Assembly (NCBI GenBank): GCA_965178125.1 | Contig: OZ237771.1 | Coordinates: 434,001-498,000 of the forward strand | From: Bilabrum cf. latius | Taxonomy: Eukaryota | DNA: 64,000 nt | Direction: 5' to 3' | Part shown: piece after piece, positions 11,361 to 63,027 of the stretch | How the letters are laid out: each line of letters starts with the position of its first letter | Numbering within the stretch: the first letter of the stretch is position 1 | Notes under the pieces: model-generated | Database searches by the model: none | Seen by the model: only the letters and a program-made list of their open reading frames with translations | What the model was told of the DNA's origin: nothing | Program-made: the position numbers and the translations under genes

Positions 11361-14338
11361 TTACGTCCACTACGGAACGCCTCCACTCCCGCCGCCCCCT
11401 GCCCGTACCCTGTACCCCGCCCCCGCCACCTGCCCCGGCCCCCCTCTCACTGCTCCCCGCTGCACCGCCCCCGCCACCCGTGCCATCCCATCCATCCCAA
11501 CCCCATCACCACTATCCCTTGTTCCCCAGGCCCAGCCCCTCGCGGGGTTGGAACCGCCCCTGCCCCCCTGCCCAGCACCCCCAGCTGCACCCGCAACCGA
11601 GCGCCCCGGCGGTCCCCCCCCCCTGAACGCGACCCGCCGGACAGCCGTGGAGGCGGACGACAGAGCCGCGCGGGCCCTTCCCTGCGCGGTGGTTGCAACC
11701 GCTCTCAGGTGCTGGAAGGTCCGGAGCGCCTCCACCTTCCTCCTGTGTGCCCCCGGGTCCGCCACGGGCAGCCTCTCCCGGGCCTCAAGAATCCTGTCAG
11801 CGGCTTCCCTCAGCCTCGCCAGCTGGTCGCCTTTCCTCTGCATCGCAGTGAGGAGACGGGCCATGGCCGCCTCCATGGACTGCACCGCAGTGCGGTGCAC
11901 CTCGTCGCTCGTCACACCGCCCTTCCTGGAGACGGTCTCCGCCTCCAGCACCAAGCTCGAATACCTGTCCTGCAAAGACCGAAACTCTGCCTCCATCTGC
12001 TCCAGCACGTGGGAGATTTCCCGCTCTGGCCCAAGCGTGCGGTGTGCCACCAGACGAGGGCCAGAACCATGCTCCTCCTCTTCCTCCTCCTCATATTCCT
12101 CCTCCTCCTCGTCTTGTATCCCCGTGTACCCCTGCAGGCTGCCTCTGTCTATGCCTGTGCCTGTGCTGCCCATCCCGAGCCTTCCTGCCCTGGATCCGGA
12201 GCCGGAATGTGGACGGTTGCTGTTCTCCGGTCCATCCTGTCTGGACTGCCTCTCCTTCTCTCTCTCGTCCTGCATGCGCCTCTGCCGCCGCAGCGTGGCA
12301 TCGCTCCTCGAGATGGCTGCCGCCCCGGGGCTCTGGCGCTTCTCGCCCCCTATCCCATCGGCCCGAGCACCTGCTCCGGATAAGTTGGTCGCAGCGGTCC
12401 CGGCCAGACCCCGACTCAGATCTTCATCTTCATCTCCGTGCACCGGTGGGTCCATCGTCATGTTGCCCCCTTCCAGCCCCTGCCCATGCCCCTGTTCCTG
12501 CCCATGCCCTTGCCCACGTCCCTACTCCGCTGCTCCAGCCGAGGAGGATGCCATGCCAGACTGCTCCCACTCGTCACTCGCCTTGCCCCACTCTGCCCTG
12601 GACTGGGACTGCGATTGAGATGATGCCTTCGATACTGCGGCGTCGGGCCACGGCGCACTGTCCTACTGGTTCTCCTCCTCCTCCTCCTCCTCCTCCTCCT
12701 CCTCGCGATTGACACCGGCTGCACCATCGTGCACTGCACCCACACCCGGACCCCGCATTAGCACCGCCTCGTCCGTATTCCCCAAATCGCCTGCACCACC
12801 ATGGGGTGCACCCTCCCCCTCCCCCTCCTTCCCTTCGTCCTCTCCCCCCAGCCCCAGCCCTCTCTCCACCGCACCATCCACCGTGTCACGCCCCGCCTGT
12901 TCCTCCGCCCGCACAGACGCCTCACTCCTGCCATAGGCACGGTGTGACGACAGCGCCTGCTGCACGTTGCCGATCACGCTGTGGCTGGGGCCGGGCCGGC
13001 CGCTGGGCATGAAAGGGATGGGCTTCCCGCCGTTGGCCTCCAGCAGCAGCTGCTGCGTGGTCTTCCCACCACTCGTCACACCACCCCCACCACTCGTCAC
13101 ACCTGATTTCCCCATCGTCCTGGCCCTCTCCCTCTCCTCGCGGAGGAACTGTGCCCTCGAAGAAGCGCCTCGCATAGCTCCGTCCAATCGGCTGCGGGCT
13201 GCCGCAGAGGCTTCAGCGGCGGGACCCATGCCGATGGAACCACCCCTCTCTTCCCCCTGGGGATATCCCCCCCCACCGTACCCACCCATGCCACCTGACC
13301 CCATAACCATGCCACCAAACTGCCCATCCCCGTCCCTATCCCCCATGTTGGCCTACCACGGGCGGTCCCTCCCATCCCGGCGCCGCGCGCGACCCTGCAA
13401 CGACACCTTGCGACCACCTCTTCCTGCGGAACCGGCGCCGCGCTTCTTCTTGCCGCCCGATTTCTTCTTGCGGCCCCCTCCCCCTCCTCCTCCGCCCCTG
13501 CGGGAACCCGCCCCCTCCCCCACCAGCCTCGCAGTCAGCACGTCCGCCTTGGCTTCCGCCAGCGCCCGCCTCTTGTCCGCCTGCCGCGCTGCCTCTTCTT
13601 GTTCCCTGACCTCCCTGCGCCCCTGCTCCGCCTCGTCTTGCGCCCTCCGCAGCGAATCGTCGAGCAGCTGCACCCTCTCCCCCGCCCTCCTGTACCTCTC
13701 CTGCTCGGCCTCTGCTCGCCCCCTCCACAGGCCGATCTCGCCCGCCTGATCCTCGATCTGCTTGTCTTTCGAAGCGATGGTCAGCCGCAGGGTCTGAGCC
13801 TCTGCTCTCTGCCGACCAAGCATGGACCTGTGGTTCGCGTCCGCCTGCCTTCGCTCCCTCTCCAGCCGCTGCTGCGTCTCGGATGCTTCCATCCGGTACT
13901 GCGATGAAAATACGAACGGCGGGCATGATATTGGGAGCGAAGTACATGCAACTAAGCCCCTGCAAAGAACACACGCCGGACCCATCGGATATGTACACTT
14001 AATGAATGCAACTAGACAGGAGCAGTTGCACGCTCCCTCACGTGCTCGTACTCGGCGCGCAGCCGCTCCAGCTCCCTCTTGAGGCTCTAGTTCTCCTCCG
14101 CGCGCTATCTAAGTTGCTACTATACGCTTTTAAGGGCCTCAATCACAACGCTGCTTGAGCCGGTGTGGCCAGGGGCCACTCCGATTCGCTGTGCGAGCGC
14201 CTGGCCCGGTGACGAAGGGGCTTGCGAGATGACAGGGGGTCCAGTGCGGCCCAGTCGCAAGCTGCCATCAAGGCTGCGGGATGCTTCCATCTCTCGCATG
14301 GTCTTGAACGATGCGTCCCGAGACTCTGTTGTGTCCAT
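11361..14338 (-). CDS. CEP57: CEP57/translokin-like centrosomal coiled-coil protein; intron 13899-14041
   Basis: VIEALKSVQQQLRQ (with TAG=Q) resembles the Cep57 N-terminal coiled coil. IPFMPSGRPGPSHSVIGNVQQAL and EISHVLEQMEAEF...MQRKGDQLARLR resemble the conserved middle motif and microtubule-binding domain. ORFs 11370, 12663 and 13353 are in frame via TAG; ends TAA 11361-11363. Confidence 0.75.
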
Positions 14339-14542
14339 GGCGGCGAAGGACGCAGATGCACGAACAGACCCAAGCGCCGGTCAGCGGTCAGGTTTGAAGT
14401 TGGATCAATGGAAGAGGCAACTTTGAGGTTGCCAGCGTGATGTGTACCGCGAATTGCTGCGTTAGGTCCGAGTTGCGGCGCTCTTGTCAGGCTTGAGGCG
14501 GCTCCGTTTCAACGGGTCGATGACGCCGCGCGCAAGTTGCGG
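14146..14542. repeat. 397-bp direct repeat, copy 1 (5' end and upstream region of the CEP57-like gene)
   Basis: Colinear with 15313-15709 at a constant offset of 1167, no indels, about 13 substitutions by eye. Confidence 0.95.
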
Positions 14543-14812
14543 TTCCGTTAAAAAGTGGCTCATTGGCCGGACCCTACCGGTGTAAACAGCCCCTGGTGGC
14601 TCATTTGACGTAATAATACCATGTAATTGTAGCAATAACATTTATACCGACAGAATGAATGTTTTTTACTCAAAGACAATTGTATCCTGAGATACAGGGG
14701 GATACAGACAGCTGCTTCCCGGTCGCCTTCGTCACATTCTTGACCGGATTATGACACACTGAGTGCATGCAATCCATATTTGAGAAAGCCAGTAGGAATA
14801 TGTATCATATAA

Positions 14813-15505
14813 TTATTGTTTCTGCCGATTAAATTTCGAATTCGCGTCGATTTTACCGAGAGCTGCTGCTCCAGCGCCCTCAGAAGACTTGCGACGGCGT
14901 TTGCCAGGCCGTTCGTCGCTTACATCGGGGCTTTGTTGCCCGCAATGTCCGTGTACTTCTTCCTCATGGTTAGCTTTGTCGACTTCAGGGCGTTGACGCT
15001 TATCTCCATTGAGCACACGTCGCATTGCACGCAGCTGCTCCCGCAGGGCTCGGTTCTTCTGCTGTAATTGTCGAAATGTCCTCTCCTCTGCAGCAAGCTT
15101 TTTCTCTGCGACTTGCAACCTCCTCTTCCATGTGGCACTGCTCTTCCTTAGGGCATATAATTTGGCGCGTAGCTTCTTCTTGGTAGCCACCAACGCTGCG
15201 TCCGTCTACGATTCATCCGAGGCCTTACCTTGCTTCTTTCCCCCCCTAGCTATTACTGTTCTGGCTTGGCCATACACTGCACCCTCGGCAGCAAAAATGT
15301 TATACTTGCTGTCAACGCTGCTTGAGCCGGTGTGGCCAGGGGCCACTCCGATTCGCTGTGCGAGCGCCTGGCCCGGTGACGAAGGGGCTTGCGAGATGAC
15401 AGGGGGTCCAGTGCGGCCCAGTCGCAAGCTGCCATCAAGGCTGCGGGATGCTTCCATCTCGCGCATGGTCGTGAACGATGCGTCCCGAGACTCTGTTGTG
15501 TCCAT
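14813..15505 (-). CDS. Putative young chimeric gene (~230 aa): duplicated CEP57 N-terminus fused to an unrelated basic coiled-coil tail
   Basis: ATG 15505 (MDTTESRDAS...) lies in repeat copy 2. The frame runs through TAG 15206 into ORF 14813..15193 and ends at TAA. Confidence 0.55.
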
Positions 15506-15709
15506 GGCGGCGAAGGATGCAGATGCACGAACAGACCCAAGCACCGGTCAGCGGTCAGGTTTCAAGTTGGCTCAATGGAAGAGGCACCTTTGAGGTTGAT
15601 AGCGTAATGTGTACCGCGAATTGCTGCGTTGGATCCGAGTTGCGGCGCTCTTGTCAGGCTTGAGACGGCTCCGTTTCAACGGGTCGATGACGCCGCGCGC
15701 AAGTTGCGG
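15313..15709. repeat. 397-bp direct repeat, copy 2
   Basis: Colinear with 14146-14542. Confidence 0.95.
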
Positions 15710-15816
15710 AACTAGTGGATTGAACGAACCTTCGAACAGCCAAGAGAGGTTCGCAGACACGTCACTTTTCATACTGCATGAATCGGAGACTGGTCCGCTC
15801 GTTTACCGTAGGAGTA

Positions 15817-17525: not shown

Positions 17526-18421
17526 ATGTCGAAACGTCGAAGGGGGATGAGCCTCGAGGAAAAGAGGTAGACAATGCGCACGTTAATGCTAGAGTCTGTG
17601 AGATGAATGCTCTGCCATGCGCATCGATGATTCGGTTGCCCGAGCAATTGCTACACAGTTGCACTTACGATGTTCCGGCTGCCGCAGCAAGAGGTTTACG
17701 ATCTAAAGGAACTTGAAAAGTTAGGAGGCAAGAAGGGCGTTGGTAAGAAATGGCGTGACCGCAAGCTTGCCGTGCCTTGTCCGGAACACAGTGCTAAGAG
17801 TTCGGTGGTGCATTCGAATTGGTTCGTGGCCATCGCAGTTACGCAAACGATTAAGGATGTCCTGCAATCGCTAGAGGATGATGGATTGATAACAATCGAA
17901 AAGATAGGTTCCAAGAACTTCTACTGGGCTTTCCCGTCAAAGGCATTCTAGTCAGTGAGCACGGTAGAGCGATTGCGAGCAACACGATAGCGCGCCCGCG
18001 ACGATCACTGCAAGCGTTTCAACAGTCTGATTATACACCACCGCAGTTAAAAGTGAAAGCAGAGGCTCTTGAGAAGGAAGCAGCGGACGACGAGGCGGCT
18101 ACCGGCGCGGCCCAGGCCCAGCTCGAGGCGCTGGCGGCGGAGAGGAGCGGCGGGGAGGAGCGGGCGGCCAAGCGGCGGCGGCTGGGTGAGCTGGATGGGG
18201 AGGCGGGGACGCTGAAAGCCGAGGTGGAGCTGCACAAGCACAACGACCCAGAGGTCCTGAAGGTGCTCCGCGGTCGGGTAGCAACCGCCAAGGATGCTGC
18301 CGACCGGTGGACAGACAACCTGTGGTCGCTCAAGGACCACTTGGTGAAGCGCATGGGGGAGGACAAGAAGAAGATCGACCAACTGCTGGAGACAGGGGGA
18401 GAGTTCGATTATGTTGATTGA
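17526..18421 (+). CDS. MND1: Meiotic nuclear division protein 1; introns 17598-17687, 17743-17838, 17955-18046
   Basis: Spliced product is MSKRRRGMSLEEKR(TAG)TMRTLMLESQEVYDLKELEKLGGKKGVVTQTIKDVLQSLEDDGLITIEKIGSKNFYWAFPS...NDPE...AADRWTDNLWSL...FDYVD, ending TGA. Confidence 0.93.
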
Positions 18422-20198: not shown

Positions 20199-23100
20199 AT
20201 GCCAAGGCAACGAAGTGGATCAGCCGCAAGCAATCGTAGCTCTGGATCGGCACGGCGCAGGTCATTGGACAATCGAGCGCCATTTGGAGCTGCTGCCGGT
20301 GCAAAATGGACCGAGATGAGTCCCGATGCAACTACTGGTCTTGGAGGGGACCAGCGACCACCGGAATACGTGATTAACAAGCCGCTTATTAATATTGACC
20401 TACTTGCAAAGTCTATTGCCGAGTACTCGGTATTTGATGATTTTGCTGACGGTGGCAGGACGAAGTTTTCTACCTCTGTGGTTGCTGAGATGCACCTTCG
20501 GTACGGCATCCTTGCCGCGAGGCTGGCCACCGCCGATGCTATCGTGCAGACGATGATGAATAATGCGCTGCGTGGGTCTGGGGCTGGCACTTTGGCTACG
20601 GTGGTCCGCCGGGAGCCCGACACTCGGTTCATGATCGCCTGGGTGAGCTGCGTCAAATGCGTATCAATGCATCATGTTGCAATTAAAACCATGGTCATGT
20701 CCATGGATGCCGTGTATCTCGTATTTTTGCTCGCCTTCGCAGCTGCTGCTCTAGCTTGCTGGCTGTAGCTAGCGGCAGCCCGACGTCGGAGCCGCCCTGC
20801 GAGCCATCCTGCGGTTCCGCGGACGCCGCGCATTGTCCCGCCTGCAGCGTTCTCACGAACTGGTTGCATGCATGGCTCAGCTAGAGCGAGCGCTCACGCT
20901 GGAAGAGGCCGCGCATTCGCCCCGTGCTCGCTCATCGGACGGAGCAAGTGCTCGGCGCCACTGGCAGAGCGAGCACGGAGCAAGTGCCCCCCGCATCGGA
21001 TACGAGCTGCTCGCGATCCGGGTACCCAAGCAAGCTTCGCCGCACGGAATGTTCGGCGTGGCGGGTGACCCCAACCAGGGGTCAGCCCCCCTGCCCCTTG
21101 GGGTCCGACTGGCAGCTGCACCCGCCCGGGTGAGGGCGAGGGCGATTACATGCAGCCATGGGGATGAGACGGGAGGCGGGGGGGCGACAGGTGCAGGGAC
21201 CGGTGCCACTCGTCACACCCCGGAGGAGGAGGCCCGCGACTGGGTGCACAGGACGCAGCGGAGTGCAGCGCACGGTGGTGCCGCTGAGTAGCTGGACAGC
21301 CCGCGCACCGACCTGCAGCAGCTGCAGCGCATTGCAGTGCAGAGGGAACAACCCAATGGTGGCGAGGGAGATGCAGTGCAGGGGTCAAGGGGCGGAGATG
21401 CTGGCGCGAGCAGCAGCAGCAGCAGCAGCAGTGATGGTCGTCGCGTTGGCAGCAGCAAGAACGAGGATGCGAGCACGAGCATCGGATCCGGAGCAAGAAT
21501 CATGGACCCAGGGTTGGAAGTCGCTGCGGCGCGGGCGGACGTGCTGGCACTTACAGCTCCGAATCTAGGCGGTCCCGGGGCACCGGCGGCGGCAGCACCT
21601 GTCCCACCGCCAGGACTGGCAGTAGTTGGAGCTGGGACTGCCACTGCATTAGGCGCGGGGGCTGGTACTGGGGTGAGTCCCTAGCCAGCCATGGAGGGGG
21701 GCAGTGTGACGAGTGAGGAGCCGCCGCCTCCAGCCAGCACAGCTTCGGGTGGAGCTGTGGCTGCGACTGCCAGCGGCTCCGCGCAAGCTGTGCCACCAGC
21801 AGCCCCTACGGCACATGTTGTTGCCAGCGCAGATACCTCCAATGGAACGGTCACCCCGGCCACATCACAGGGAACAAATGAGGGAACAACCACCGTGGGA
21901 CCAGTCCCCGCCCCGCCGGCCCCCGCTCCGTCCCTGGCAAGCGTTGGAACGACGCAGGGAACAACGCAGGGAACTCAGCCAGTGCCAGCCGCAGTTACCC
22001 TACCGTCAACCACAGGCTCAGTCGTCGCAATGCCTGCACTCGTCACACAGGGCACGCACGCAACCGCAAGCAGCAGCAGTACCCGCAGCCCCCGCGCGGC
22101 TCTGATCTCCCAAGGCCTCTCCGGGTCCGTGTCCCCCGCGGTGGGGTCAATGCCCCCTGCTCCCCCAGGGGTGCACTCTCCCCGGCATGGGGGTCTCGAG
22201 TCCATGCCTCGGTCCCGGCGGCAGGGGGGGACCGCCCTTGGCTCAGCCGCTTCCATTCGCTCTGGAATGTCGAGGGGCAGCAGCAGCAGCGGGCCGAGGA
22301 CGGGGGGAGGGGGGGGCTTGCACGGCGGTGCGGGGGGGGTGGGGCCGCAGGAGCAGCCCGCGCCTGCGGATTGGCCGTGGTTTGAGGGCAGCGGGCCCGT
22401 GACCGCAAGGTGGCCAAAGGTGGGCGCCACTTTGGCCAGGCACCTCGCACTGCGGCTGTCCCTGCCCGGGGGCAGGCCCCCCTGGGACTCTGATTTCCCG
22501 ACGGAGCCCAGCGAGGCATCGCAGGAGGCGGCGGCGGCGCTGGAGCTGGACCCCAAGCTGGAGGCGGAACAACTGTTATCCCGGTCCTGGAGAGACGCAA
22601 GCCGGAGGGCGAGCCTGCTGCAGGCGGTGGTGGACAAAGACCGGCCCGTCTGGGACGATTCCGGATTGGGCGGGGCCGCCGGGTTGCTGGCGGGTTGTCA
22701 GGCTGCCTCCCCTCAGGATGGTCTGGCTCTAGCATCCATGAGGAGGCTGGCAGCGGGGGAACAAGGCGGGGCAGACGATGTGGGTGGAGCTAGCGTGCTG
22801 GCGGGGCCGCGGGCTGTGACTGGGTCGGCCACGGGTGGCCTGAGCACGAGTGCGGAGCTGGGGCTGCCAGCCGCCGTGATGCTTGAGGTGGGTAGCAGGC
22901 TGGGGATGGGAGTGGGGCTCGGGCATGGGACAGGGATAGACGAGCCCAGCGGTGGCTCGTGGGCGTCTCACTCGTCACACCGCGGAGGTGCTGCCGATCC
23001 ATCACCGCACCCTCCGGCAGTGCACCCCGCCTCTGCCGCGTCTTCGTCTTCCCTCTCTTCTTCTTCTTCATTTTCGACCTCGATGGCGGGCATGGGCGGG

Positions 23101-36176: not shown

Positions 36177-36211
<35 letters not shown>

Positions 36212-44331: not shown

Positions 44332-47300
44332 ATGGCATAGACAGCTTCCGCAGAAGATGAAATGAGAGCATACGCTTAGGTGAGCTGAAGCTTATTGCCA
44401 CCTGATGCTTGGAGTTGTCCAAACAAGCACTCCATGCATCGGCTCTGGCAGAGTGTGCAAGCTTGCCATGTGCCTCGCAGGTTCTTGAAAAGATGCAGAA
44501 AGAAGATCCCTCATAGTATGCTGAGGTTATGAAACAGCTTCAGTAGCAGCTAGGAGGGGGGGTACCTGGCGGAGGCCCCCCAGAAGAGGTAGGAGCCCAA
44601 ATAGCAACAACGTCGCTCTGCAGTATTGCGAACCTTTCCACTCTGGCACGCTGGGCTTTATCAATCACACACACACACTGCAGGCCATTGATATCGAGCC
44701 GGAGCCCGCTTTCGTGATCAAGACTCGCCGTGCACCCACGCGGCATTCGGGCAGTAGCCTATCTCTACCGACGGGCCCTGAAGGCTTGGCAGAAGGCGGA
44801 GCTCTACGGGAGCCGCAGAAGTTCTTCGTAAATGTGTGCACACACGACCATATCCCTGAGTTCTCCCGGCACACGTCCATCGGGGCCGACGGGCAGGAGC
44901 AGGAGGGCATCAGGGTGCCCGTCTCGGTCGCCCACGCGCTGCAGGACGCCAAGGATAAGGCGGGCCGGCCGTGCGCCGCCTGCGACGTGGTCGTGTCACC
45001 ATCGGTGGTTGCAGAGTGCGCGGCAGACCCCACAGGCCAGTTCCGCCACTTTGTGTGCCAGTTCCTCCTGCAGGCGGTGGAGAAGAAGCACGCGGCCGGG
45101 GGCGCCGCGCATTAGGGTGGTTCCGTATCGGCGTGGCGGCTGGAGACGGATTACAGGCTGCCCAAGCTCCAGTACCAGGGAACAATACCTCCGGCCAGCC
45201 ACAGGGTGCGCAAGAGGACAGCGCCAAAGGTGTAGGTGCAGCCTGTGGAGGGGGGTGACCGTGAGACTGGGGGCGGGAGGAGGGGGGGGAGGAGGGGGCA
45301 ATCGGGGGGAGGAAAGGCCACTGGAAGGCAGTCCAAAGGGGATGCAGGCAAAGGTGGGAGGGTTGCGTTCGAGAACGCCAGGCTGGTGGCCGAGGCGGAG
45401 GCAAGGGTGGCCATGGCGGGGGGGGGTTCCATGCTGGGGGGGGATGGCCGACTGAGGGTGCGTGCGATGGGGGAGGAGGAGGAGGAGGGAAGGAGGCTGG
45501 ATGGGCTCAAGCAGGTGGGTAGGGGCGGTGTGACGAATGGGGAGATGCAGGGGGAAGGGGCCGGGGCGGCGGCAGCTGCCTATGATCCTGAGCTAGGGGC
45601 TGGAGCATCGGCTGCGGCGGATCTGCTCCGATCTACGGAGTCAAGTGAGACACCAACGGGCGAATCAACGGGCCCAAAAGTGCAAGAAGTGCCACCTGAG
45701 AGTATGGGTGGTGTGACGAGTGCTGGGAGGGGTACGGGCACCATCCGTGAAGGCAGGGCCGGCAGTGTGGGGTCGGATGGCATGCACAAGGGGGGCAAAG
45801 GAAACGGAAATAGCAAGGGCAAGGGCAATGGCAAGGGCATGGTGGGCAGAGGCTTCCTCCGCGCGAGGAGGAGCAAGCCCGTGCAGAGACCCAGGGCCCC
45901 GCCAGCGGCTATCCGGAGCCGAATCTCCATGTTTGCCCTGCCCGCCCCCCCTCCCTCTGGGGGCGATGCGCGGGGGGGGCAGGGGCTGGAGGCGCTGCAG
46001 TGCGCTGCACGCGGGATGCTCGATGCGATTGCCTCTGACCCACAGGGACCCAACAGCTAGGTGCATCGCACTGCAGGGCTGGACCCCAGGGATGTATGGC
46101 GCGCGACCGGCTGCACCCGCGCCGGCTGGGACAGGGAGGCGTGGGCCGGGCTGCCGGCGGACTGGGCTGCGCTGGCTGGGCTTAGGGAGCTGCAGCACGG
46201 GTGGGTCCGGCAGATCCGGATGGGTGTGACGAGTGCGCGGAGGGGCGGTGATGGCGGTGGTGCTGGTCGAGGTGCCGCATCGAGCGAGCTTCGGTCGGTG
46301 CTGGATGGCGCGCGAACTTTCGTGAAGCGGTGGAGAGATGGAGGCATCGGAATCGGGGTTCTGGGGGTGGACGTGGCGTGCGCTTTGGACCGATCGCAGG
46401 CTCAGTGTGACGAGTGGCTAGGGAAGGCGGGGCTGGCTGGAGCCATGCAGGCGGCGGGGCGGCAGGGCGCGGTGCCCGCAGACGTCGTGTCTGCTCTTTC
46501 GGACGGTGTGACGAGTGAGGAGGGTTCTGCCAGGGTGTGTCTCCTCAGTGTAGAGGATGGTGGGGGGCAGTCGCGCCAGAAAGACGGGGCAGCCAGCGGC
46601 CTGGATGCTTCTCCTCTTGCACCCCCGTCTCTTGCGCGAGCCAACGCGGCTGCCAAGGAGGCGGGGGCCAGGGAACCTTCGCTGCGAGTGAACCTTTCGG
46701 AGGAGGCCCTGGGGATTTAGGCTCCGGGTCATCGCGCCGCCGAGGAAGTGCTGCCCTGCTGCGTGTGCCCAGGCGGTGTGACGAGTGACGGGGCCCTGCA
46801 GATGCGGGGTCATCTAGACCTGACCCTTGCCCCCCATGTTGGGGTCAGGGTGCGACTCCTCTCCGAGGCGGGGGCCAGGGGTCTAGCGGTTCTGCTGGCG
46901 GTGGATGCGGGGGAGAGCATCATGGGGCCGGAATCACCGGGCGCAGAGCAGAGGGACGGCAAGGGCGAAGACAAAGCTGAGGGTGAGGCTGGGCACGAGG
47001 GCAAGGGCGGAGGGGAGGGTGAGCTGCCGTCTCGCGCCCTTGCTGCCCTGGGCCTGGCTTGTTCTCTGGTGGAGTTGGCCGGGGGCGACCGGGCGGGGGC
47101 CGTGATTCCGGCTCCGGATACTTCATCTGCCAAACCAGGCACCCTGTTCTACCGCCCGGGTCCCGATTCCGGATCCAAGCAGGAGCGGGTGCGCGCTGCC
47201 TTCAGAGCTGCGGGGGGGAGGGGGGATCGTGAGGATGGAGCCAGTGGAAATGAAATGGAAGGGGAAGGGCGGGATGACGGTTCGGTAGATGGGGTTGAAA

Positions 47301-47683: not shown

Positions 47684-47845
47684 GCATGCGCTGGCAGCTG
47701 ATGCTGATGGTAATTTGAGCGCTCTGGCCATGGCCGCGATGCCTAAGAGAAGGTTCATGAATCTGTGAGAGCGTGCTCACTTCATTCCGTTGTATCAAAC
47801 CCGACAAGTGTACAGCGCCACTGATTGTTGCATGCGTGTACAGCA

Positions 47846-49764
47846 ATGAGGCTTTCTAAGTGCCTGTTTTTGTTTTTTACGCTACACATGAGTTCACAAT
47901 GGCCGTGGCGAGACGCATGCTCAGCCTTCCTGCAAGTGGCATCGGCCATGACCATGGCGGAGTTCGAAGGTTTCCAATCGTACCAGAAGTACCCAGGTGT
48001 AGTATATATATCAGGAACTGCTCTAGATTCGCCTCGGAGGCAAGGGTACTGCACGGGGGTGTTTGTTGCCCCGGAAATTGTGCTGACAGCCGGACGCTGC
48101 CTGACAGGCTTAAATGAGTTCGGGCTTGCGATTGACACGGCCGACGACGGAGAGTATGCAATGCCCGGCAGCACCCATAACACATACTTTGGAAACATGC
48201 GTGTAGGTATGGGTCCATTCACTTCACGGAACAACGAACCGACCGTCGTTGACCTGGGGCCGGTGTCCAACTACTCGTTCGTGTATCAGAGCGGAAAACA
48301 CGGATTTAACTTGGGTATCCTGCGAGTTAGTTTGCGTGACCCTAGCCTATAGCCAGAAGTATACCCGCCCAGAAACTAGACTCTTGTGAGACCAAGAGCT
48401 GGATCAACACAAGGCACCCCAACTGCTGTGAACCTCCTGCACGCACCGATACCTCCGATTAAGAAGCCATTCGCATCGTCATTAACCGATTCAATTCGCA
48501 GACACTACCTCTTCGCGGCGTGGCGGTCGGATACGGAGCCGTGGGCGAGGACCAGCTGGGCAACTGGCGGGAGGCAGGGGTGCAGCGCGCTGCCTCCGTC
48601 CGCATCGTGTCGGTCACGGAGAGGGAGGCAATATCGGGGCAGTGCACGAGAGAATTCGAGGGTGGGGCGCTGATGGTGACTGACATCGGCACTGTGGATC
48701 AGCCCATGATGTGCGTGTCCACGGGAGATTTCGGGGGTCCCGTGCTGGCCCCCATGCCGGATGCGCCGGATCGGCTCGAGGTGGTTGGGGTGGCATCGCA
48801 GGGTGACGACTCGCCTTGTTCCTCCACCACGTCATACTTCAGCCAGACCGTGTTTCGCCGCAACTGGATCAAGGAAAGGATCCAGGTACTCTCCGGGATG
48901 CCGTACAGGCCCGTCATATGCCCCTCGGCAAGCCCGAGCACCACCCCCACAGCGAGCCCCAGCCCCAGCAGCACCCCCAGCGCCACACCCTCCCCCACCC
49001 CTTCCCCCGTGTACCCTCCCGTGATCAAGCACACCATCGACTGGGTGACGCTGGGCGTGCTGCTGGGCATCGCGGCTGTGTCAGTGCTGGCAGGGATAGG
49101 GGCGGGGGTGTACTACCACCACCGGAGGAGGACACTGGAGGCAGCAAGAGTGAAGCCATTGCCGCCGAAGGAACCTAGGGATGGCAGTGATGGTGACCAT
49201 GACGATCATGCAAGCACTCGGACAAATAGTGCGACGGGTAGCGGGGCGCTGCATGGGCCCAGCACAAAGACGAAGACGAAGACGAGAGCGCGGGCGCTTG
49301 GGGCCATTGCGCAGCAGATCAAGATCAAGCACGTGGCTGATGGAGGCGAGTCGAAGCAGCGCCATGCGGGGGATGTATCAGGTAGTAATAAAGAGGTGGA
49401 GTAGAAAAGCGCGCTGGATTCCACAGGTGCAGGCAGCAAGCAAAATGCGGGTGCTGGCGGTGCGCTGCTCAGCGAGAGGGAGAGGCGGCAAGTGGCCTCC
49501 AGGATCGACAAGGACAGGCGGGCGAGGAGGAAGCAGAGGGAGAAGCTGCAGTTCCAGAAGAGGAACGTGGCGGGGGGGAGGGCACCGGCGCTGTACGGTG
49601 TCCCTGGAGGCTCCCGGTTCAGCGAGTATTCGGGAGTGCCGGCACCCCCCGATGTGGAGAGGGTGAAGCGGGTGCTGCGGGAAGCGGGGGCGGGGGATGG
49701 GGGGATCGGTGAGAGCAAGGGAGGGGATGGGATTGCCAAAGCGATGCAGGATTTGCAGGAGTAA
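47846..49764 (+). CDS. Membrane-anchored trypsin-like (S1) protease homolog lacking the catalytic triad; intron 48386-48501
   Basis: CTGVFVAPEIVLTAGRC, NLGILRV, AVGYG, GDFGGPVL and VVGVASQG, then a P/S/T stalk and TM WVTLGVLLGIAAVSVLAGIGAGVYY. Reads through TAG 48350, 48377 and 49402 to TAA 49762-49764. The start codon is uncertain. Confidence 0.8.
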
Positions 49765-49939
49765 TGGAAGCCTAGTAGCGCGCTCGAGGACATTCTGCGT
49801 GACAGAACGACTTGCGGTGTTGTATGCTGGCCTACTTATAGCGCACTCGGAGCTGGAATCGCACGGCCCACTGGCGCAAGAACGAACACAGTGCATGGGC
49901 CAGACCACGACCAAAGTTCTGAACAAGGCGATCAACAGT

Positions 49940-52900
49940 ATGGCATCAAATAGCGGTGGCTCATGGGAGCTGCGCGAGTTTTTTTCTGGCCCGCTCCTGC
50001 TCGCCTGCGCCCGCGACCACCGATACTTTGATTACATTCTCGAGTGCATGGGCAAGACACTCCGCATGCAATGTCCCATGAACGATCTGTCAAGATTCGA
50101 ATAGCGTGATGATCTATACATCGGACTAGGGAGCTAGGGTCTAGTAGAGACGGGGGTAGGGGTCAAGGCAAGAAGCTTAAAGACCTTTGTTGAGCGCGTG
50201 GTCGATGACGATTCACTGCCAAGCACGGCCCGGAAATCCGTCCTGCTCCCACACGCTAATCTACTAGCGTCTTGGGATGTAAGCTGCTCCGTGTTCCCGG
50301 GGAGCAAGGTGGAGGTCAAGTCTCGCCGGGACTAGGATGCTGCAAGTGGAGCGGAGAGGCTAGCCAAAGAGACGAACATCAGGCTGGCCCCGGTTCTGTA
50401 TCAAGCACAGCTCTGGGCTGAGCGTAGCAAAGCGAAACTATCCACTCCAGCCGGCCGAATATCCCCATCAAGCCCGGAGTTCGGTACAACAGCTGCTGCA
50501 GCACCAACCGAACCTGCACCGGCACCTGCGCCTGCCCCTGTGCCTGCCCCGTCATCTGCCCGCGAACGTGATCCCCCCAAGGCTGTACTGAAGCCTCTCC
50601 CCCCTGTGGAATGGACCAAGCAGTCCGCTGGCAAGAAGGCCTTGGAGGCCCTGTGTCCCGCCGTGCTCTCATAGGAGGCCATCGCGGGGGCGCTGGACGG
50701 AGGGGCGGTTGCAACCAGGAAGACGAGGGTGGCGAGCTTCTTCGGCGAGTTCGGGCTCATGGTGGAGCTGGCCGTGGTGAGCTGCAGGCTGGGGCGGTGT
50801 GACGAGTGGAAGGAGGGGGGGGAGGGCGAGGTGGGCGGCAGGGACGGGGGGAGAACCAGGGGAGGCCTAAGAGGACGAGGACGAGGAGGACGAGGAAGAG
50901 GAGGAGGGGGCGGTGGTTGGCGGAGATGGCGGGATGGGGGCGGTCGTAGGGGCAGAGGCGGGTACAGCAAAGTAGGGGGGGGTCGCACGCGTTGGGACGG
51001 GCTGGCCGTAGAGAAGGAGGAGAGTTAGAAAGGGGAAAAGGAAGACTCCGTACGGATTGATTTCAGCTCCGGGTCGGCTACGCTAAGCACGGATGGAGTG
51101 GTGATGGGTCTGGATATTTCGCCAGCGCGCGGCGCTTCTCTGTGCCTGAGCGTGTGCGTGGAGGGCGGGGAGGAAGAGGTGCGGGCGCACGGTCCTAGCA
51201 TTCTGGAGGCCTCGCGGATGGCGCTGCTGCTCGCTGGGAAGAGGCTCAAGCTGGTGGACTCGGAGTCGGAATGCATGGCGGCTGGGCCCGGGGCTGGGAG
51301 TGCACTACGCGAAGCGCCCCGCGGGGCAAGTTCGGCCGGATCATCCACCGGTGGATTGGACCCGCCTGCCGCCGTGCTTGGAATGCGGTGCGGGTATGGG
51401 GAGTTTTGCTGCCGCGCGATTGACGTGCTGAGGGAGGCGGAGGGGATGGGTGCATTGCATGGCGATGCATGGAGGGAGCTGGTGTGGGAGGAGGACACTG
51501 GGACACCGCAAGGCGATGCGCCTGATGCAGCAGCAGGGTAGGTCGCGGATGGGGGTGCGGGCGCGGGGGAAGGCAAGGTGGAAGCAAAGCCAGGACCAGG
51601 ACCAGGACCAGGACCGTGTCCAGGCAATGATACAGCCAAGGTGGCGCTGGAAAGAGTCGGCGGCATGGGCAGCAGCAGCAGCAGCGATCACGATGACAGT
51701 GACGACGGCGGTGAACGTGATGACGAGATCGGTGTCGAGAGGAAAAAGGGCAAATCACTGCCATCGGCACCACACTCGTCACACCCAGAGGATGGGGACG
51801 AAGGGGGGAACACGAGGGCAGCAGCGGTCGGCGATGCACCGATCCGAGTAGGTTACTGCAGCTACGGGTCGAATCTCAACGAGCAAAGGTTCGCTTGCTA
51901 CTTGCTGGGCGGGTCTATCCCGGGCATGATGACGAGTGAGGCGGGCTGCAGGGACAATAGCTCGCCTCGGGGCAGCGCCACTGTGAGTGCCCCAATGAGG
52001 GTCTCTTTCGCGCGGCGGTCTGCTCGGTGGGGGGGCGGCGGTGTGTGTTTCGTGGGCGGCACTCGGATCAGGACAGCCGTGGGGGCGGGTGCATCGCATG
52101 GTGGTGATGGCGATGGCCTAGAGGTGGTGGTGGATGTGGGCGATGGCAGTGTGACGAGTGCGCGGTACGGCTGCAGCGGGGCGCTGCTGCGAGCGTATGA
52201 CGTATCTCTCGGGCAGTTCAACGACGTTGTGGCGCAAGAGAACGGCAAGGACCCGAGGGTGCATTGCACTGCAGTCGAAGAAAGATCCACCAAGGCGAAA
52301 GAGAAGGTTGATCATGACTCGGAGGAGGGGGGGGCAGACCCCCGCGCGCTGACGGTGGAGGACATCGAGGCCATGAGGAAACAGGGGCCCGGGGCAAGGG
52401 TTCGACTGGGCAGCGGGTGGTACGGCAGTGCAGTGTACCTAGGGGAGGCACCCCAGTGGATGTTCGAGGGATCGTCACACCTGGGCAGGATGTATGCGAG
52501 AATGGACACGAGCAAGAAAAGGGGTACGAAGAAGAAGGGGAGGGGCAAGGGCGGGGCCATGGCTTGGATCGGTGGGGGGGGCGAGGGGTCCGATGACCCC
52601 ACACAGGGGTCAACACCAGAGGATGCCACCCCAACTCCAAGCACACCCGCCCCTGCCCCGCACTCGTCACACCCACAGGCGCCCTGGCTCTCCGACGGCT
52701 CCCTCCGCCCCGCGCTGGGCCTGGACCTCGCCACCGGCCTGGTGTGCCCCGCCGAGCAGCTGCCTGGGATGGCTCAGGGCGCACGGGGTGTGACGAGTGG
52801 GGGCGTCGCTGGACTCGGCGATGAACCAAGGGGAACCTGGTTCCGCAAACCAACCGGCGCCGCGCGGGCCACCCACGCCGACGTGCTGGTGGGCCTTCGC

Positions 52901-53266
52901 GACCTTGGCCTGGCCGTGCCCTCCCCCAGCACAGAGGACCTCTCCTAGCTGCTCGCAGGGTACGGGGTGCCGCTGCAAGGTGCATCGCACGGCGGTGCGG
53001 GGGCGGAGTCCGGGGCGGGGGTTGTGGTGGAAGGCAGCACGGCGCCGCGCACGGTTCCGCTGGTGACTTTCACCATGCCCCGTTCGTGCGAGTCGTCGCT
53101 GGACTGGAGCCGGCATGTGGACCCGTCAGCTGCCTACCGTCGGACGATCGTGGAGGGGCTGGTGGCGGGGGGCCTGGGGCTGGACGAGGCGCTGAGGTAC
53201 GTGGAGAGGAGAGTGAGGGGGTCCGCGGCAGTGGATCGGATCAGGAGGTAGCTCGCGAAGGTGTGA
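49940..53266 (+). CDS. Protein with C-terminal gamma-glutamylcyclotransferase-like (YGSN) domain interrupted by low-complexity inserts
   Basis: YCSYGSNLNEQRFACYLLGG..PG....GCRD, FARRSARWGGGGVCF, RAYDVSLGQFNDVVAQEN, GWY, PLVTFT and PSAAYRRTIVEGL. One frame joined by TAG, ending TGA 53264-53266. The start is 49895 or 49940. Confidence 0.72.
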
Positions 53267-53491
53267 CGAGTGGCAGGCCGTCCGACGAGGCGTGCGGCAC
53301 TGAGCGTTGCAGATCTTAACTTCAGATTTGGCGCACCTGGATGCATGTGCTTTTCGTCTTGCAATCAGATTCGCGCTAGGATTTGGCTGCAGCCACTTGC
53401 TTCCGCTAGACTGCCGTCTTTCCTTCCAATTCAACATGCTAGCCATGCCGGCCCAATGCGCGAACGCAGATGCACCACCGATACCACCCAC

Positions 53492-54673
53492 TCACTGCTT
53501 GCGCCTGCTGCCTGCCTTCTCCGCCTCCTCCTGCGCCTGCTGCCGGCCCAGCCTCAGGTCCAGCTCGGCCTGGGCGCGGCTATGCTGGGAGAAGGCTGCC
53601 CCGATGACGAGTGCGATCGCTGCCACGATCACGCCCCAGTAGGGCCACAGCTTGCCCGTGGCGCGGACCATCTCGTCACTCGTCATCACGCGGACCCTGC
53701 CCCCGGATGACGAGTGCGCCAGCACGGCCGTGTCCTCCCCTCCGGCACTCGCCTCCTCCTTCACGTCGTACCATACCTCGGCCCTCTGAGGCTCCATCCA
53801 CCCGTCAGCGAGGGGGGTGATCTCCACGGAGGCGGTGGAGAGGGCGCGGGGCTCCAGGGCCGGCCAGGTGATCTTGAGGGAGCCGTTGCAGAACACGTGG
53901 ATGGTGGAGCCGTCTGCCTCCACCGGGTCGAAGCCCTCTTTGCCCCCGTCGCACTGGGAGTATGGCACGCCTACGGGGGTCACCTGGAAGCTGTCCGGGC
54001 TGAAAGTGTCGTTGAGCTCGATGCGGAAGGCCTTGGACACCCCGATGTTGGTGATTTCATACGAGACCTTGTTGGGGCGCTTGGCGGGAATCACAACGTA
54101 CATGGAATCGGGGAGCTCGATGCGCTGCGTATCGCAGGAGGGGGGGCAGGAGCACGTATCGAATGGATGGGGCGCAGTTGTGCTATCTCGCGATGTCCTG
54201 CTGATGAACACAGCTGAGAGGCTGACACAAGTAGCCGGCATCGACAGGACCGAGCGCTGTGGAGGTTCACCCGTGTGACACGCCACACAACCAAAACATC
54301 GTTCACCAATAGTTATTTACATAGTAACGTAACACATTGTAAGTAGATGGTATGGATGCGCGGACTGCATGTGCCAAACGGCACCGCGACATCCACGTTG
54401 TCGCGAACCAGCGAGCTGGTGCGTTTGTCTCACCTTTTCAACACTGAGCCACGGGCGGTTATCGATATCAAATGCTTCCTCTGCTGATACCTCAGCGGCC
54501 GGCACATCCTCGTCTTCTGCCTCCAATTCATCCTCGCCATAGAGCTCGTCCTCGCCGTCAACGAATCCCCCATCTGCACCAACCTCGATGTCATCGGCGA
54601 ATGCGCAGGAAGACATGATTGCAAGCATGCCCATGCTAGATGCCAAAGCCATCATTGTGCTTCTGGCAATCAT
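53492..54673 (-). CDS. SSR2: Translocon-associated protein subunit beta; intron 54125-54433
   Basis: Signal peptide and acidic stretch, then VSYEITNIGVSKAFRIELNDTFSPDSF, GSLKITWPALEP, AHSSSGG and TM YWGVIVAAIALVIG, following the TRAP-beta pattern; ends TGA. Confidence 0.8.
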
Positions 54674-56289
54674 GCCCGCCGAAAAATAGACTGAAGTACG
54701 CTCTCCGGATCCGTCGAATGTAACGGAACAATACACAATTTACTGGTTTTTGCCGGTTCCGGATCAGCAATTTGCGCGGCGCCCAGATAATTCGGAGAAG
54801 AAATCATGATGCAATTCGATTCAGCGCGCTCTTGCGAGTCTGCTGGTGCGCCTTTCAACTCAATACGATGAGATTAAGTCTGTTAACATGCCATTCAAAG
54901 AATTGGCCTCTAGCAGGGAGCTGCAGCTTTGCGCGGCGCCAAAACTGTGTGATTAGTGTCGCACGACACCCCGACACTGCCCGGATACCCCTTTCTAGTC
55001 TACAAAATAGACCTAAAAATATACCTGTATGATAATGATGCTAAATTATACGCTGCTGTGCAGACGAATGTCTGAATAAGATTCATTTGGACACGACAGG
55101 GTCCACGGTCATCCCTCTGGCAGCCGCAACAAACTTGCTTCGATTGGCCCTCTGAGATACTGAATTTGATTACACTCCTCATAATTCTGAGCAAATTGAT
55201 GACTTTATTCAAATAACGCGCTCATATTCTGCTGTGCGGTTCATGAGTAGGGTGTTTCCCGTGAGGATGACTGAACCAGGCCGCAGAGTTAGCTATTGCA
55301 CATTTACCTCACCAATCTGCAGCTTACCGCGAATTGAGACCAACCACTACATTTTTTGTATTGATCGTATTCAGAAAATCGAACAGGAGGCTACTATGGC
55401 CATCATTAGGACCCGAGCAGCACCAGCAGCTGTGCGGGTGGCCAGATCCAGAAGACCTGAAGTACGCCATGCTATTCTACACCATTGGGACTGAAAATCC
55501 GTACACTGCCTTTTATTAGGTATATTAATACCATGATTAGTCTCAAACTAGTACTGGCCTCATAGATTTGACACAATTGTGTTCTGAATGGTACCAAACC
55601 ACTGGAAACAGCCACAACTTGCGAAATTGTAGGACCTGTACAAATACAGTACCATACACAAACAAATCGTATGTATAAATAAACTATAAGTGTATCAGGA
55701 CAGTGGTGAATTGGATTCTGCCCAAAATGAATCGAGATCTGACGTCAAATGAGACCATCCTCGGTTCTAATGGACTCTCTGTGACATACTGGAGCGGTGA
55801 TTTGTTTTAAATACCTATTTGATCTGTAATGAAGTCGACCAATAGCGCATTCTATTCGTCGAAATGATTGCACAATAGGGATGCAGCGTGGACTGTGGTT
55901 TCAGTGGCATTTGAATCAGCGTGCTGCTCCTCTCGTTAGCCTTACGGTGGTTGTATGGTAATTCACTAATTACACAATGAAAAAACCTCATTACATGGAA
56001 GATACGCTATTGATGTCGCGTGATAATCGACGAGTTGTATTGTGTCGGGGATCGTTGCGGTCAAGAATTGGTGTGATGAATGTGTCGGGGTAAGTTACAA
56101 CCGACGGATCGCCCGATGGTGTTTGTGAGGTGCCGTTATTGGACGATCCGGTGGAAATACACATTTTGAAGCAAATTCGAATCGGGGCATCCCTGCGATC
56201 ATAGTGAGGTTGTTAGCTTTAACCCAAGTTACGTCGTCGCATTAGTATGTAGTGACCTATTGCTCGCCCTACGATCCACATTTGTGAAG

Positions 56290-59884: not shown

Positions 59885-59915
<31 letters not shown>

Positions 59916-61278
59916 GCAGGGGCAGGGATAGGGTAGCGGGATTGGCAGGCCGTCGCCTGGCACCCAGGCCACCAGCCCGACCATGGTGTCGCCCTCGTCA
60001 CACCACTCTCACTCGTCACACGCATAGAGGCAATCGCCACGGGGTACCAGGGAGGGTGTCCAGGGTGCATTGCACGGCCGCGGTGCCACCAGATCACCGC
60101 GCGTCTCCGACAGGGGAACACCGCGCTCGTCACACCAGCACCGCTCCCCTCACTCGTCATCCCCTTACTGGCAGCCGAGCGCCTCTGGCTCCAGCAAGCC
60201 AGCTGCAGCCGGGGCTGGATCCCGTTCTCAACCCAGGGGGGCGGGGGCGGGGGTGGGGGGAGGCAGGAGACATGGGAGCAGTGGTTCCGCAGGCAGGGAC
60301 GCGCGCGGCGCCTCCAAGCCTCGGCGTACCCCCTCCTCCGCGGGCTCGTCCTCCCGCCAGCGTGACCCGCAGTCGTTGCACTCGAGTCAGAAGACGCGCA
60401 CCACCGGCACCGGCAGGGGGAGCGGAAGGGGGAGGGGGAGGGTTCGGCCGGCCTCGAGGGAACCTTCCCAGGCGCAGCTGGACCGTGTGGCAGCGGCCAT
60501 GGGAGCCACCGTGATGGCGGGGGGGGCCGGGTCACCCTCCCTCAGGGGATAGGTGGGGTCACGGGGGTCCAGGCGGGGGGGCGGGATGGGGTCACGGGAG
60601 AGGGAGAGGGATCTTCATCTTCAGGATTCGGACGGGGGGGTCAGTGGCGCGGCGCATCGAAGGTACAGGCAGCGGCAGGGGAGTGTGGGGTCTAACCGGA
60701 GTTTTAGTGTTTCCGGCGACGAGCAGGGGGGTGGGCCTAGTAGCAGGGGGGGGACAAGCCCGCGCAGGCAGGGGCAGGGGCTGCAGCGGCTCCGGACTCC
60801 TCTTGTTCCCTGGCGGCCAAGCGGCAGTGCGGGAAGCGTGGGGTCCGGGGGCCTGGCGAGCGATGGAGCAGGGATGGGGCACGGGTTTGTGGAAGTGCCG
60901 GCTACTGGGGCTGGGGCTGGGGCTGGGGCTGGGGCTGGGGGTGGGTTGTCCGGGGGGGGCGGTGGAAGGAGGGGGAGGGGGGAGGGGCGATCGAGGGAGA
61001 GGGGTGCCTCGCGCGGGGGGACATCGGCGGGAGGTGCTGCTGTGTGGGTGGTCGGCGGGAGCGGGGGGGGAGGGGGTCAGGGCACATCGGCTAGGGGGGG
61101 GGCATCGCGGGGGGGCGTCGGGATGAACCTGGGGGCCGGTGTGACGAGCGAGGGGAGCCGCGGGTCATCCTCGAGGAACGATCGGAGAGGAGCATCTCGG
61201 CAGGGGTCTAGGGGTGGTGTGACGAGTGCAGCGAAATCGTCACTGGCAGGTCTGTACGGCGGGACTGGGTTTTACTGA
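56290..61278 (+). CDS. Hypothetical ~1,660-aa G/S/R/E-rich, probably disordered protein, intronless
   Basis: ORFs 56260, 56848, 59035, 59539, 60070 and 60553 are one frame separated only by TAG; ends TGA 61276-61278. No recognisable domain. Confidence 0.72.
59827..59931 (+). repeat. Coding tandem repeat (CAGGGAAATGCCATG)x4 followed by (CAGGGR)n ending in TAG
   Basis: Directly visible; encodes (QGNAM)4(QG)n. Confidence 0.9.
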
Positions 61279-61364
61279 GAATCCAGCGTGACGGTTGTAA
61301 GACTTAACAGTGTGGGAATCCAATAGGAAATTTGAATATGCATGCAACGTGTGGAGTGCAGTCG

Positions 61365-63027
61365 TCACGCCTGCTTCAGCCACTGAACCGCCTGCTGCAC
61401 CGCGGCCCGTCTCGCCTGCGCCACCGCGGGAGGCAGGTACCCGTCCGGCGCACTCGTCATATCGGAGCAGTGCCACCCACCGGAGATTAGTACCGCAGGC
61501 GGTTGCAACCCGTTCGAAGTATCACCGAAACCCCGACCCTGGCCTTGCCCTTCACCCCGCCAGTGGTTCAACAGCTGCCCCCCCCCTCTAGCCAGCCTCT
61601 ACCACGGGAGTAAGCAAGGTATACGGGTCCGCTGATCCCCCCAGCCACAGCACTCTCCCGCCGGAACCGTTCGTGGGCCGGTTCCCACCAGAGAAAGTCA
61701 AAATGTCCCGCTGCCGGGAGGCCTGCTGCGCACTCGTCACACCCAGCACCCCGCCGCAGACGTCCCCGAAGAGCAGCTCGGCAGGCGTGGGACCCCCGTC
61801 CGCTGCGTATGGGCAGGTGGAGGGGTCTGAGCACGTGTTGAGGAAACCGACTGCACTGCACTGCAACCATGTATACTGCCGGCCCCAGTCAGCCGGGTCA
61901 CTCGTCACACCCGTGATCCCGTCCAGGTACTGCTCCCACGTGGAGTAGGGCGTGCACTCGGCCGGTGGGAGGGGGTCTCCCTGCAGGCTCCAGAGGGCGC
62001 GATCCACGGCGTGCAGGGGGTCCAATCCACCGGCGGATCCGTTTTGCATGGCCTTGCAGAGGTAAGGCACGATGAAGCCGCGGCTGGACTGCACTGCCTG
62101 GAATCCTAGAGTGATGTCGACTGCTGCTCTCCATGCGCTTGCCGCGTCTTTCTGGGACATGCTCTCACTCGTCACACCGTCACCTTGCGGACAGAGCCGC
62201 AGTGCGTCCAGCAGCTTGAGCCAGTCGGCTGGGTCCGACGATGTGACGAGTGCAGAGGCTTGCCGTAGGCCTGGCAGCAGCACGTCCTCTGCGATGCCGG
62301 GGCAGCCCCCCGCGGCAGTGTCCCCCATGGCCCCCTGCAGACCCTGGTGGTACCTGGGGAACAACGCGTCCAGCTGCACAGGAGCAGATGAAGCGATGAC
62401 TCCGGCTAGACGGCTAGGGACCGGCGCGGGGAGGCCGGGGAGGAGGCGGCTGTCTGCGTCCAGCGCGGCTAGGCTTGCGACAATGCCGCTGTAAGAGCAT
62501 CCAAGCCCCACCCATCGAGATTAGGGGGTGATCCCGTGGAGCACTGGCGATGCACTGCCGGCATTGGCTGCGTCGCTCGCCCAATCGATAAAGCGAGCAA
62601 CGTCGAGCGAGGCTTGGGCAGGATCCAACGTCGCATTCATGGAATCAATAGTCAGGCTTCCTGAAGCCCCGTACGGCCTGGACTTCCCAAAGAATCTGTG
62701 CTCCAGCAGGATCATGGCTGCGCCAGCAGATTTTGCGGTGCGCGCGGCCTGTCCGATCAGTATTCCCCACCACTCTTCGGCCTCGTTCTCGCCCCCAACA
62801 AGCAGCACAACCGGTACAGGAGTCCCTGCTAAGTGCTTTGATGGAGCCACGAAGCTAGAGTTTACAAAAAAACGCTGTGACCACATGTTGTTTGCGGACG
62901 CTGATTCTCGATGATCAATAAGCTGGCCATGGAAATATCGCTCCTCGTAGGGCAAGGCAGCCCGTGTGAGCTGCACTGAGATACACATCAATGATACACA
63001 TCCAAGCGGAAAGAAAAATTTCTACAT
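61365..63027 (-). pseudogene. Serine peptidase family S28 (prolylcarboxypeptidase/TSSP-like) with in-frame TAA (62521) and a 1-nt frameshift in a C9 run (61578-61586); pseudogene or sequence errors
   Basis: Signal peptide M(TAG)KFFFPLGC..., QLIDH, WSQRFFVN, VLLVGGE, LEHRFFGKSRP, QASLDVARFI, WVGLGCSYSG, IASSAPV, RQYTWLQC and GSADPY. ISGGWHCSDM...AR...QWL lies in a shifted frame ending TGA 61365. Confidence 0.75.

Follow-up and report, generated by a model that had tools for sequence, protein, structure and literature searches.

UAG read as glutamine, with UGA as the main stop and UAA as a probable minor stop, in a GC-rich nuclear DNA segment of Bilabrum cf. latius

Analysis of 64 kb of genomic DNA from Bilabrum cf. 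latius (assembly GCA_965178125.1, contig OZ237771.1, positions 434,001 to 498,000; the whole of this stretch is here called the window) points to a genetic code that has probably changed at one codon only: UAG specifies glutamine, UGA is the main stop and UAA a minor one. This pattern, the one of NCBI translation table 15 (TAG = Gln, TAA/TGA = stop), is supported, in that it fits every test run. The original prediction, made from the letters of the window and its open reading frames (ORFs), had proposed a table-15-like code and had described dozens of internal TAG codons; both statements agree with the present analysis, since 85 in-frame TAG are distributed across 12 ORFs, unaccompanied by TGA or TAA, Gln stands opposite TAG in homologues, TAA does not occur in 12,589 codons of the window or in 7,603 codons of related metagenome contigs, and three ORFs end on TAA where coding signal and G+C drop. 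The window has a G+C content of 62% and contains at least 18 genes, located on both strands; Pfam matches include alpha-galactosidase (twice), a cyclic-nucleotide-binding ion channel, pirin, Mnd1, LMF1, a PIH1-domain protein, TRAP-beta and an S28 peptidase. Such genes are commonplace in eukaryotes, and the window belongs to the nuclear genome of a GC-rich eukaryote in which genes are densely packed.

When the three standard stops are applied, the longest ORFs of the window reach 860, 710 and 606 codons; reading through TAG extends them to 3557, 1703, 1572, 1503 and 1200 codons, and allowing TAA also as a sense codon leaves the lengths almost unchanged. Indeed, ORFs of 908-3556 codons are open solely if TAG is read (Table 1). 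Evidence at the transcript level comes from three sequencing runs, which are taken as RNA from their spliced joints, the records carrying no RNA label, and whose contigs are the longest pieces listed; GT..AG joints are found in these runs from 43223 to 43461 and from 54124 to 54434 (minus strand), and a DNA run contains neither joint. These joints confirm two introns, at 43224-43460 (237 nt) and 54125-54433 (309 nt), and indicate that spliceosomal introns are present in the genome; the long genes of the window are intron-free. The RNA contigs 45593-46993, 49893-50812 and 61590-63041 span TAG codons with 0 base differences; thus TAG is neither edited nor spliced out. The contigs of one run, X7, leave parts such as 47770-49770 without cover. 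TAG also occurs 3 and 5 codons ahead of the terminal stop in two of the 18 genes (11370-11372 on the minus strand and 53249-53251 on the plus strand), where about 0.5 such cases are expected; these are too few to say whether TAG terminates there.

The amino acid assigned to UAG can be read from alignments and from codon repeats. In the alpha-galactosidase, whose best homologues are about 40% identical, Q is more frequent than any other residue at TAG 452-454 and at TAG 758-760 in an alignment of 20 homologues; a tblastn re-check with eight homologues placed Q opposite TAG 758 in 6/8 and opposite TAG 452 in 3/8, and the other five TAG of the gene fall in variable columns or in an insert. A further TAG, in Mnd1, stands opposite Q in the protein of a relative (Table 1). 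Within repeats, TAG takes the place of CAG in the series CAG GGA CAG GGA CAG GGG CAG GGG CAG GGA TAG GGT at 59929, it heads a run of four CAG at 6328-6330 (TTC TAG CAG CAG CAG CAG), and it is found at 23293 in CAG CAA TAG CAA. As far as can be judged from these positions, few conserved columns being usable, UAG is decoded as glutamine.

TAA behaves differently from TAG. Codons were counted in eight ORFs with TGA at both ends, so that the absence of TAA was not built into the ORF definition: their 12,589 codons include 70 TAG, 0 TAA and 0 TGA. The ratio CAA/(CAA+CAG) in the window is 0.18, so that synonymy with TAG would predict 15.4 TAA, and none was seen (Poisson P 2e-7 for zero). TTA, the least used sense codon, is found 15 times. 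A frame-aware scan of all stop triplets on both strands gave the same picture, with coding signal on both sides for 0/392 TAA, 31/737 TAG and 0/1526 TGA. TAA is not a sense codon. TGA, too, is never found in frame as sense, with 0 occurrences in the 12,589 codons of the window and 0 in the 7,603 codons of the related contigs. A code with no dedicated stop, of the Condylostoma or Blastocrithidia type, was also considered and rejected, given the lack of in-frame TGA and of any TGA, among 1526, with coding signal on both sides.

The same pattern was found in contigs from other samples. Relatives were searched for in a metagenome collection by using as probe a pair of copies of an over-represented 12-mer of the window, GTGTGACGAGTG; 122 loci were obtained, of which 12 were chosen by hand (30.8 kb), and the other 110 were dropped as unrelated or too short. 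The 12 contigs share long ORFs that are open only with TAG read, the peptide word GVTS and eukaryotic domains (SET, EF-hand, SMC_N, Snf7, hydrolases). Their 16 ORFs, bounded by TGA or by the contig edge, total 7,603 codons with 42 TAG, 0 TAA and 0 TGA; CAA represents 30% of their Gln codons, which leads to 18.3 expected TAA, and 0 were seen (P 1e-8). These are direct ORF counts, used in place of the window-trained coding scan, which failed on these contigs (it picked up only 3 TAG flanked by coding signal and made spurious TGA calls inside a repeat). No matches were obtained by blastn between the 122 loci and the window, and a tblastn comparison of 19 window proteins with the loci yielded a single match, between the giant ORF and locus L117 (45% identity over 93 aa); there is no overlap between the related contigs and the window, from which they have diverged. 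Closer relatives are represented in a protein collection by Mnd1 fragments 96% and 75% identical to that of the window, and the related proteins of the public collection are pieces that break off at TAG. Motif-pair scans of genome contigs (21 loci) and of viral contigs (2 loci) found no relatives, the long ORFs there being open under the standard code. Since the metagenome contigs share the 12-mer, the in-frame TAG and the lack of TAA, an environmental lineage related to the organism of the window exists.

UGA is the main terminator, used by about five-sixths of the genes, and UAA is a minor one: the 18 modelled gene ends consist of 15 TGA and three TAA. The original prediction had listed three TAA ends, at 11361, 14813 and 49762, and these are found as stated; it had also listed 18 TGA ends, against 15 that could be modelled here. 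The composition drop across the TAA at 11361 and 49762 matches that of the TGA ends; at 14813 it is weaker and the sequence beyond is AT-rich. The spacings of about 205 and 175 bp to the next ATG that had been reported for two of these stops were measured as 208 nt (TAA 11361 to ATG 11153) and 176 nt (TAA 49764 to ATG 49940). Read-through at 11361 and 49762 would cross the ATG of the next gene, and the RNA contig of the gene that follows 49762 begins at 49893. The drop of composition and coding signal at the three ends and the lack of TAA within genes jointly suggest that TAA acts as a terminator, and on these sequence features a stop function of UAA is probable. The further proposal that reading TAA 11361 as sense would fuse CEP57 to the ion channel holds as regards an in-frame fusion, ATG 11153 being in the frame of the upstream ORF, but the main ORF of the channel (6160-10875) is in another frame, and this ATG may or may not be part of the channel; the CEP57 label is sub-threshold, the ORF 11364-14129 encoding a weak Cep57-like coiled-coil protein (Pfam E 0.011; 16.6 bits, below the cut-off of 31.3).

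Two further features concern the gene ends. The ORF that starts at ATG 11153 (10683-11153, minus strand) encodes a globular-looking protein in a frame that differs from that of the main channel ORF; it runs to a TAA at 10680, with a coding signal that fades earlier, and it represents a first exon joined on by splicing or else a small gene of its own. A second in-frame TGA is found 2-8 codons past the stops at 1277, 35754, 47681 and 35422, and most of the listed TGA stops are followed by G; they may represent back-up stops and a preferred stop context, respectively.

Only one TAA was found in frame inside a conserved gene, the one encoding the S28 serine carboxypeptidase. The original prediction had described it as an internal TAA at 62521 in a gene that is also frameshifted, and both lesions proved to be real. 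Homology crosses the TAA in one frame, as each of four S28 homologues is aligned over the site by tblastn in one match and a PDB alignment continues on both sides of it; farther along the gene, a G9 run breaks the frame, and one G fewer in this run restores the reading to the motif GGWHCSDM, which is conserved in homologues P0128-P0130. The TAA is present in RNA, in contig X5 61590-63041 from another study, with 0 differences, and a GT..AG intron cannot be placed around it without removing the catalytic motif. The column occupied by the TAA is variable in the more distant homologues (D, S, G, T) and is thus uninformative on the meaning of TAA; a protein search of representatives gave 591 matches, the best of which (56% identity, 210 aa) covers residues 222-433 only, and no close S28 orthologue spanning the TAA site is among these 591. 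Since two lesions are found in this gene and none in the other 17, the S28 gene appears to be decaying, yet transcribed, and it is probably a young pseudogene; its TAA would then be a nonsense mutation, since in this code one G-to-A substitution is enough to convert the Gln codon TAG into the stop TAA.

The S28 gene is also the basis for a different explanation, in which UAA has two meanings, working as a stop at gene ends and being decoded or read through at some internal sites, with an eRF1 that, once retuned against UAG, is also weaker on UAA. This is unlikely, even if it would fit a TAA located in a gene with intact catalytic motifs and present in RNA, as well as the preponderance of TGA over TAA, 15 to 3 in the window and 7 to 0 in the relatives, as if UAA were the poorer stop. 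However, the case is single and concerns a gene that is also frameshifted, no other in-frame TAA occurs in 20,192 codons, and the base that follows is T both at the internal TAA and at the three terminal ones, so that no distinguishing context is visible. The caveat of the original prediction, that rare sense TAA are possible, is still valid owing to this gene. If UAA did have two meanings, a GC-rich non-ciliate eukaryote would stand midway between the codes of tables 15 and 6, and UAG capture would have taken place under G+C pressure, and not under the usually invoked A+T pressure.

Several points weigh against a code with UAG as glutamine and UAA as a minor stop. The S28 gene, in which the one in-frame TAA occurs, is conserved and retains the Ser, Asp and His motifs, and this TAA is also carried by an RNA contig from another study. 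The stop function of TAA is seen at three ends only, with no mapped poly(A) site; the one at 14813 is the weakest of the three, having a weak local coding signal, and no homologues were scored for the tail of this gene. All the complete gene ends on the related contigs (7/7) are TGA. The sample amounts to 64 kb plus 31 kb. Moreover, neither tRNA-Gln(CUA) nor eRF1 was seen: a tRNA scan gave 0 genes in the window and 0 in 28 related loci, Rfam at the gathering threshold gave 0 matches in the window, and the eRF1 gene is not among the genes of the 64-kb window. Finally, a donor-like GTRAG word is located 53-108 nt upstream of each TAA stop, at a frequency that corresponds to chance (1.41 per kb in intronless ORFs), and splicing past the TAA is possible.

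This last point, together with the existence of introns at 43224-43460 and 54125-54433 and with the exclusive use of TGA at the gene ends of the relatives, would be consistent with a UAA that is effectively unused, UGA being the sole terminator and the three TAA-ended ORFs being mis-modelled, with a last exon spliced upstream of the TAA. Such an arrangement is quite improbable, because coding signal and G+C fall at the TAA itself and not at the donor-like words, these words are found at chance rate, and the 176 and 208 nt that precede the next ATG leave no space for a further exon. A ciliate-type code (table 6, UAR = Gln), with TAA made rare by G+C pressure, is highly improbable: the 62% G+C, the disfavoured A-ending codons and the one in-frame TAA would agree with it, but A-ending Gln codons amount to 18% in the window and 30% in the relatives, which predicts 15.4 and 18.3 TAA against 0 and 0 seen, and three ORFs end at TAA. 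The possibility that the code is unchanged, the in-frame TAG deriving from pseudogenes, unspliced in-frame introns, RNA editing or assembly errors, is negligible in view of the 85 TAG in 12 ORFs without TGA or TAA, the same pattern in contigs of other samples, the RNA that keeps TAG unchanged and unspliced, and the position of TAG on Gln columns.

For a code with UAG as glutamine and UAA retained as a stop, two changes in the translation apparatus are suggested by codon usage. A tRNA-Gln whose CUA anticodon differs by a single mutation from that of tRNA-Gln(CUG) would read UAG and would be unable to pair with UAA, and an eRF1 with lost or weakened recognition of UAG would still recognise UAA and UGA. 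That a CUA anticodon reads UAG and not UAA is stated in the accessible text of PMC5304391.

Table 1. Coordinates of the features discussed (window positions, except for the related contigs).
Feature	Coordinates	Strand	Details
Alpha-galactosidase	2..1279	+	7 in-frame TAG within a single homology match; TGA at 1277
Cyclic-nucleotide-binding ion channel ORF, 1571-1572 codons	6160..10875	-	14 TAG, ends with TGA; Pfam Ion_trans 1.6e-17, cNMP_binding 5.3e-11
TAA end of 922-codon ORF 11364-14129	11361..11363	-	coding score 19.4 before, 2.4 after; G+C from 0.74 to 0.53; next in-frame TGA +247 codons
TAA end of 244-codon coiled-coil ORF 14816-15547	14813..14815	-	ORF score 22; local coding score 1.9; G+C from 0.54 to 0.42; next in-frame TGA +27 codons
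TAG of Mnd1	17949..17951	+	opposite Q in the relative's protein P0125; tblastn 93% identity over 44 residues
Longest ORF, 3556-3557 codons	20647..31317	+	23 in-frame TAG, no TAA, TGA at both ends
TAA end of membrane-anchored trypsin-like ORF 48463-49761	49762..49764	+	coding score 22.0 before, -3.5 after; GC3 from 0.76 to 0.52; next in-frame TGA +89 codons
TGA stop of ORF 49940-53263	53264..53266	+	inside the GTGTGACGAGTG copy 53261-53272
ORF of 1702-1703 codons	56170..61278	+	8 in-frame TAG, ends with TGA; has (CAG GGN)5 TAG GGT at 59929-59931
S28 serine carboxypeptidase gene	63027 to ~61364 (part with in-frame TAA, 61555-63027)	-	keeps GCSYSG, DPY and GGWHCSDM motifs; transcribed
In-frame TAA of the S28 gene	62521..62523	-	9 codons (8 intervening) before the catalytic Ser of GCSYSG; sole in-frame TAA inside a conserved gene
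G9 run of the S28 gene, frame lost	61578..61586	-	one G too many splits the Asp motif from the His motif GGWHCSDM (three-frame translation)
Example copies of GTGTGACGAGTG	21704-21715 (+), 13070-13081 (-), 53261-53272 (+)
Related metagenome contigs	L002, L013, L018, L020, L034, L036, L053, L055, L061, L065, L077, L082		several samples; 12-mer present, sometimes as GVTSD tandem arrays

The 12-mer GTGTGACGAGTG that served as probe is itself a peculiar component of the window. It is present in 66 copies with at most one mismatch, compared with 0.31 expected, a roughly 200-fold excess, and its conservation drops sharply at the edges of the word. Exact copies number 43, of which 42 are in ORFs, on both strands; 29 of them are on the sense strand, where 26 read x-V-T-S-x, mostly G-V-T-S, and 3 read C-D-E, and 13 are antisense. 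The word is never in the frame that would give TGA, except for one copy that supplies the real stop at 53264. RNA keeps the copies, and the related metagenome contigs share the word. In the alignment of the S28 peptidase, 3/4 copies are on alignable residues and not on insertions, and one is common to a 56%-identical relative. In its distribution GTGTGACGAGTG seems to resemble the uptake sequences of bacteria; a literature search found the string only in papers of unrelated title or abstract.

Other observations concern single loci. At 47825-49764 (plus strand) a membrane-anchored trypsin-like protein reads LTAGRC and GDFGGP at the places of the His and Ser motifs, which in trypsin are AAHC and GDSGGP, and judging from these residues it may be a dead protease; its Pfam Trypsin match is weak (E 0.021), and an intron is likely in the gene, because two ORF pieces are in different frames. 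For the second alpha-galactosidase, RNA contigs stop at 43952-43953 (plus strand, 43929-43953), about 21 nt past the TGA, once with adapter sequence, both contigs deriving from a single study; the 3' untranslated region of this gene may be very short. At 54709-56109 the depth of the DNA contig is 188, compared with about 16 in the neighbours, with almost no RNA depth; this segment is lower in G+C and non-coding, contains no ORF of note, and is probably a dispersed repeat with roughly a dozen copies.

Ciliate genomes are typically AT-rich and contain very short introns. Compared with the ciliates in which only UAG has been reassigned, the window looks unlike ciliate DNA, with its 62% G+C, at least 18 genes in 64 kb and introns of 237 and 309 nt. 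These ciliate cases, as given in the accessible part of McGowan et al. 2024 (PMC11687900), are Protocruzia tuzeti and two phyllopharyngean lineages, where UAG alone is read as Gln and UAA is a stop, with several independent origins. The same part of that article names a rhizarian, Iotanema, Scotinosphaera, Protocruzia and some phyllopharyngean ciliates, and changes of UAG alone to Leu and to Ser are also known from it. The closest described system is the nuclear code of the fornicate Iotanema spirale, with UAG = Gln and UAA/UGA as stops (Panek et al. 2017, PMC5304391, as far as its accessible text goes): as in the window, only UAG is reassigned, to Gln, and a tRNA-Gln(CUA) with an altered eRF1 was postulated. 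However, UAA is the predominant stop in Iotanema, whereas UGA dominates 15 to 3 in the window; moreover, Iotanema was known from a transcriptome only, while the window is genomic DNA with 62% G+C, in which no eRF1 or tRNA was seen.

Translation table 15 gives the same assignments as the window, and it is a formal table with no lineage; its attribution to Blepharisma is erroneous according to the accessible text of PMC5304391. Table 6, the ciliate, dasycladacean and hexamitid code with UAR = Gln, is also reported for the aphelid Amoeboaphelidium protococcarum in the parts consulted of PMC5304391 and PMC6299283. It reads UAG as Gln like the window, but UAA as well, whereas in the window and its relatives TAA is absent from 20,192 codons and in the window it ends three ORFs; the Amoeboaphelidium protococcarum code, which reads both TAG and TAA as Gln, was thus rejected as a match. 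In the literature searched, subscription papers and closed supplements being outside the search, no report was found of a GC-rich non-ciliate lineage with only UAG read as Gln.

The code variant itself is already described, and what is new is its carrier, with 62% G+C, introns of 237-309 nt, at least 18 genes in 64 kb and UGA as the main stop. The window would represent a further independent case, in a GC-rich, intron-containing and apparently non-ciliate eukaryote, and thus a data point against the view that UAG and UAA are locked together. As both the genomic DNA and the RNA-like runs are public, tRNA-Gln(CUA) and the changes in eRF1 would be readable from the whole assembly. Gene callers that apply the standard code or table 6 would mis-annotate this genome and those of its environmental relatives.

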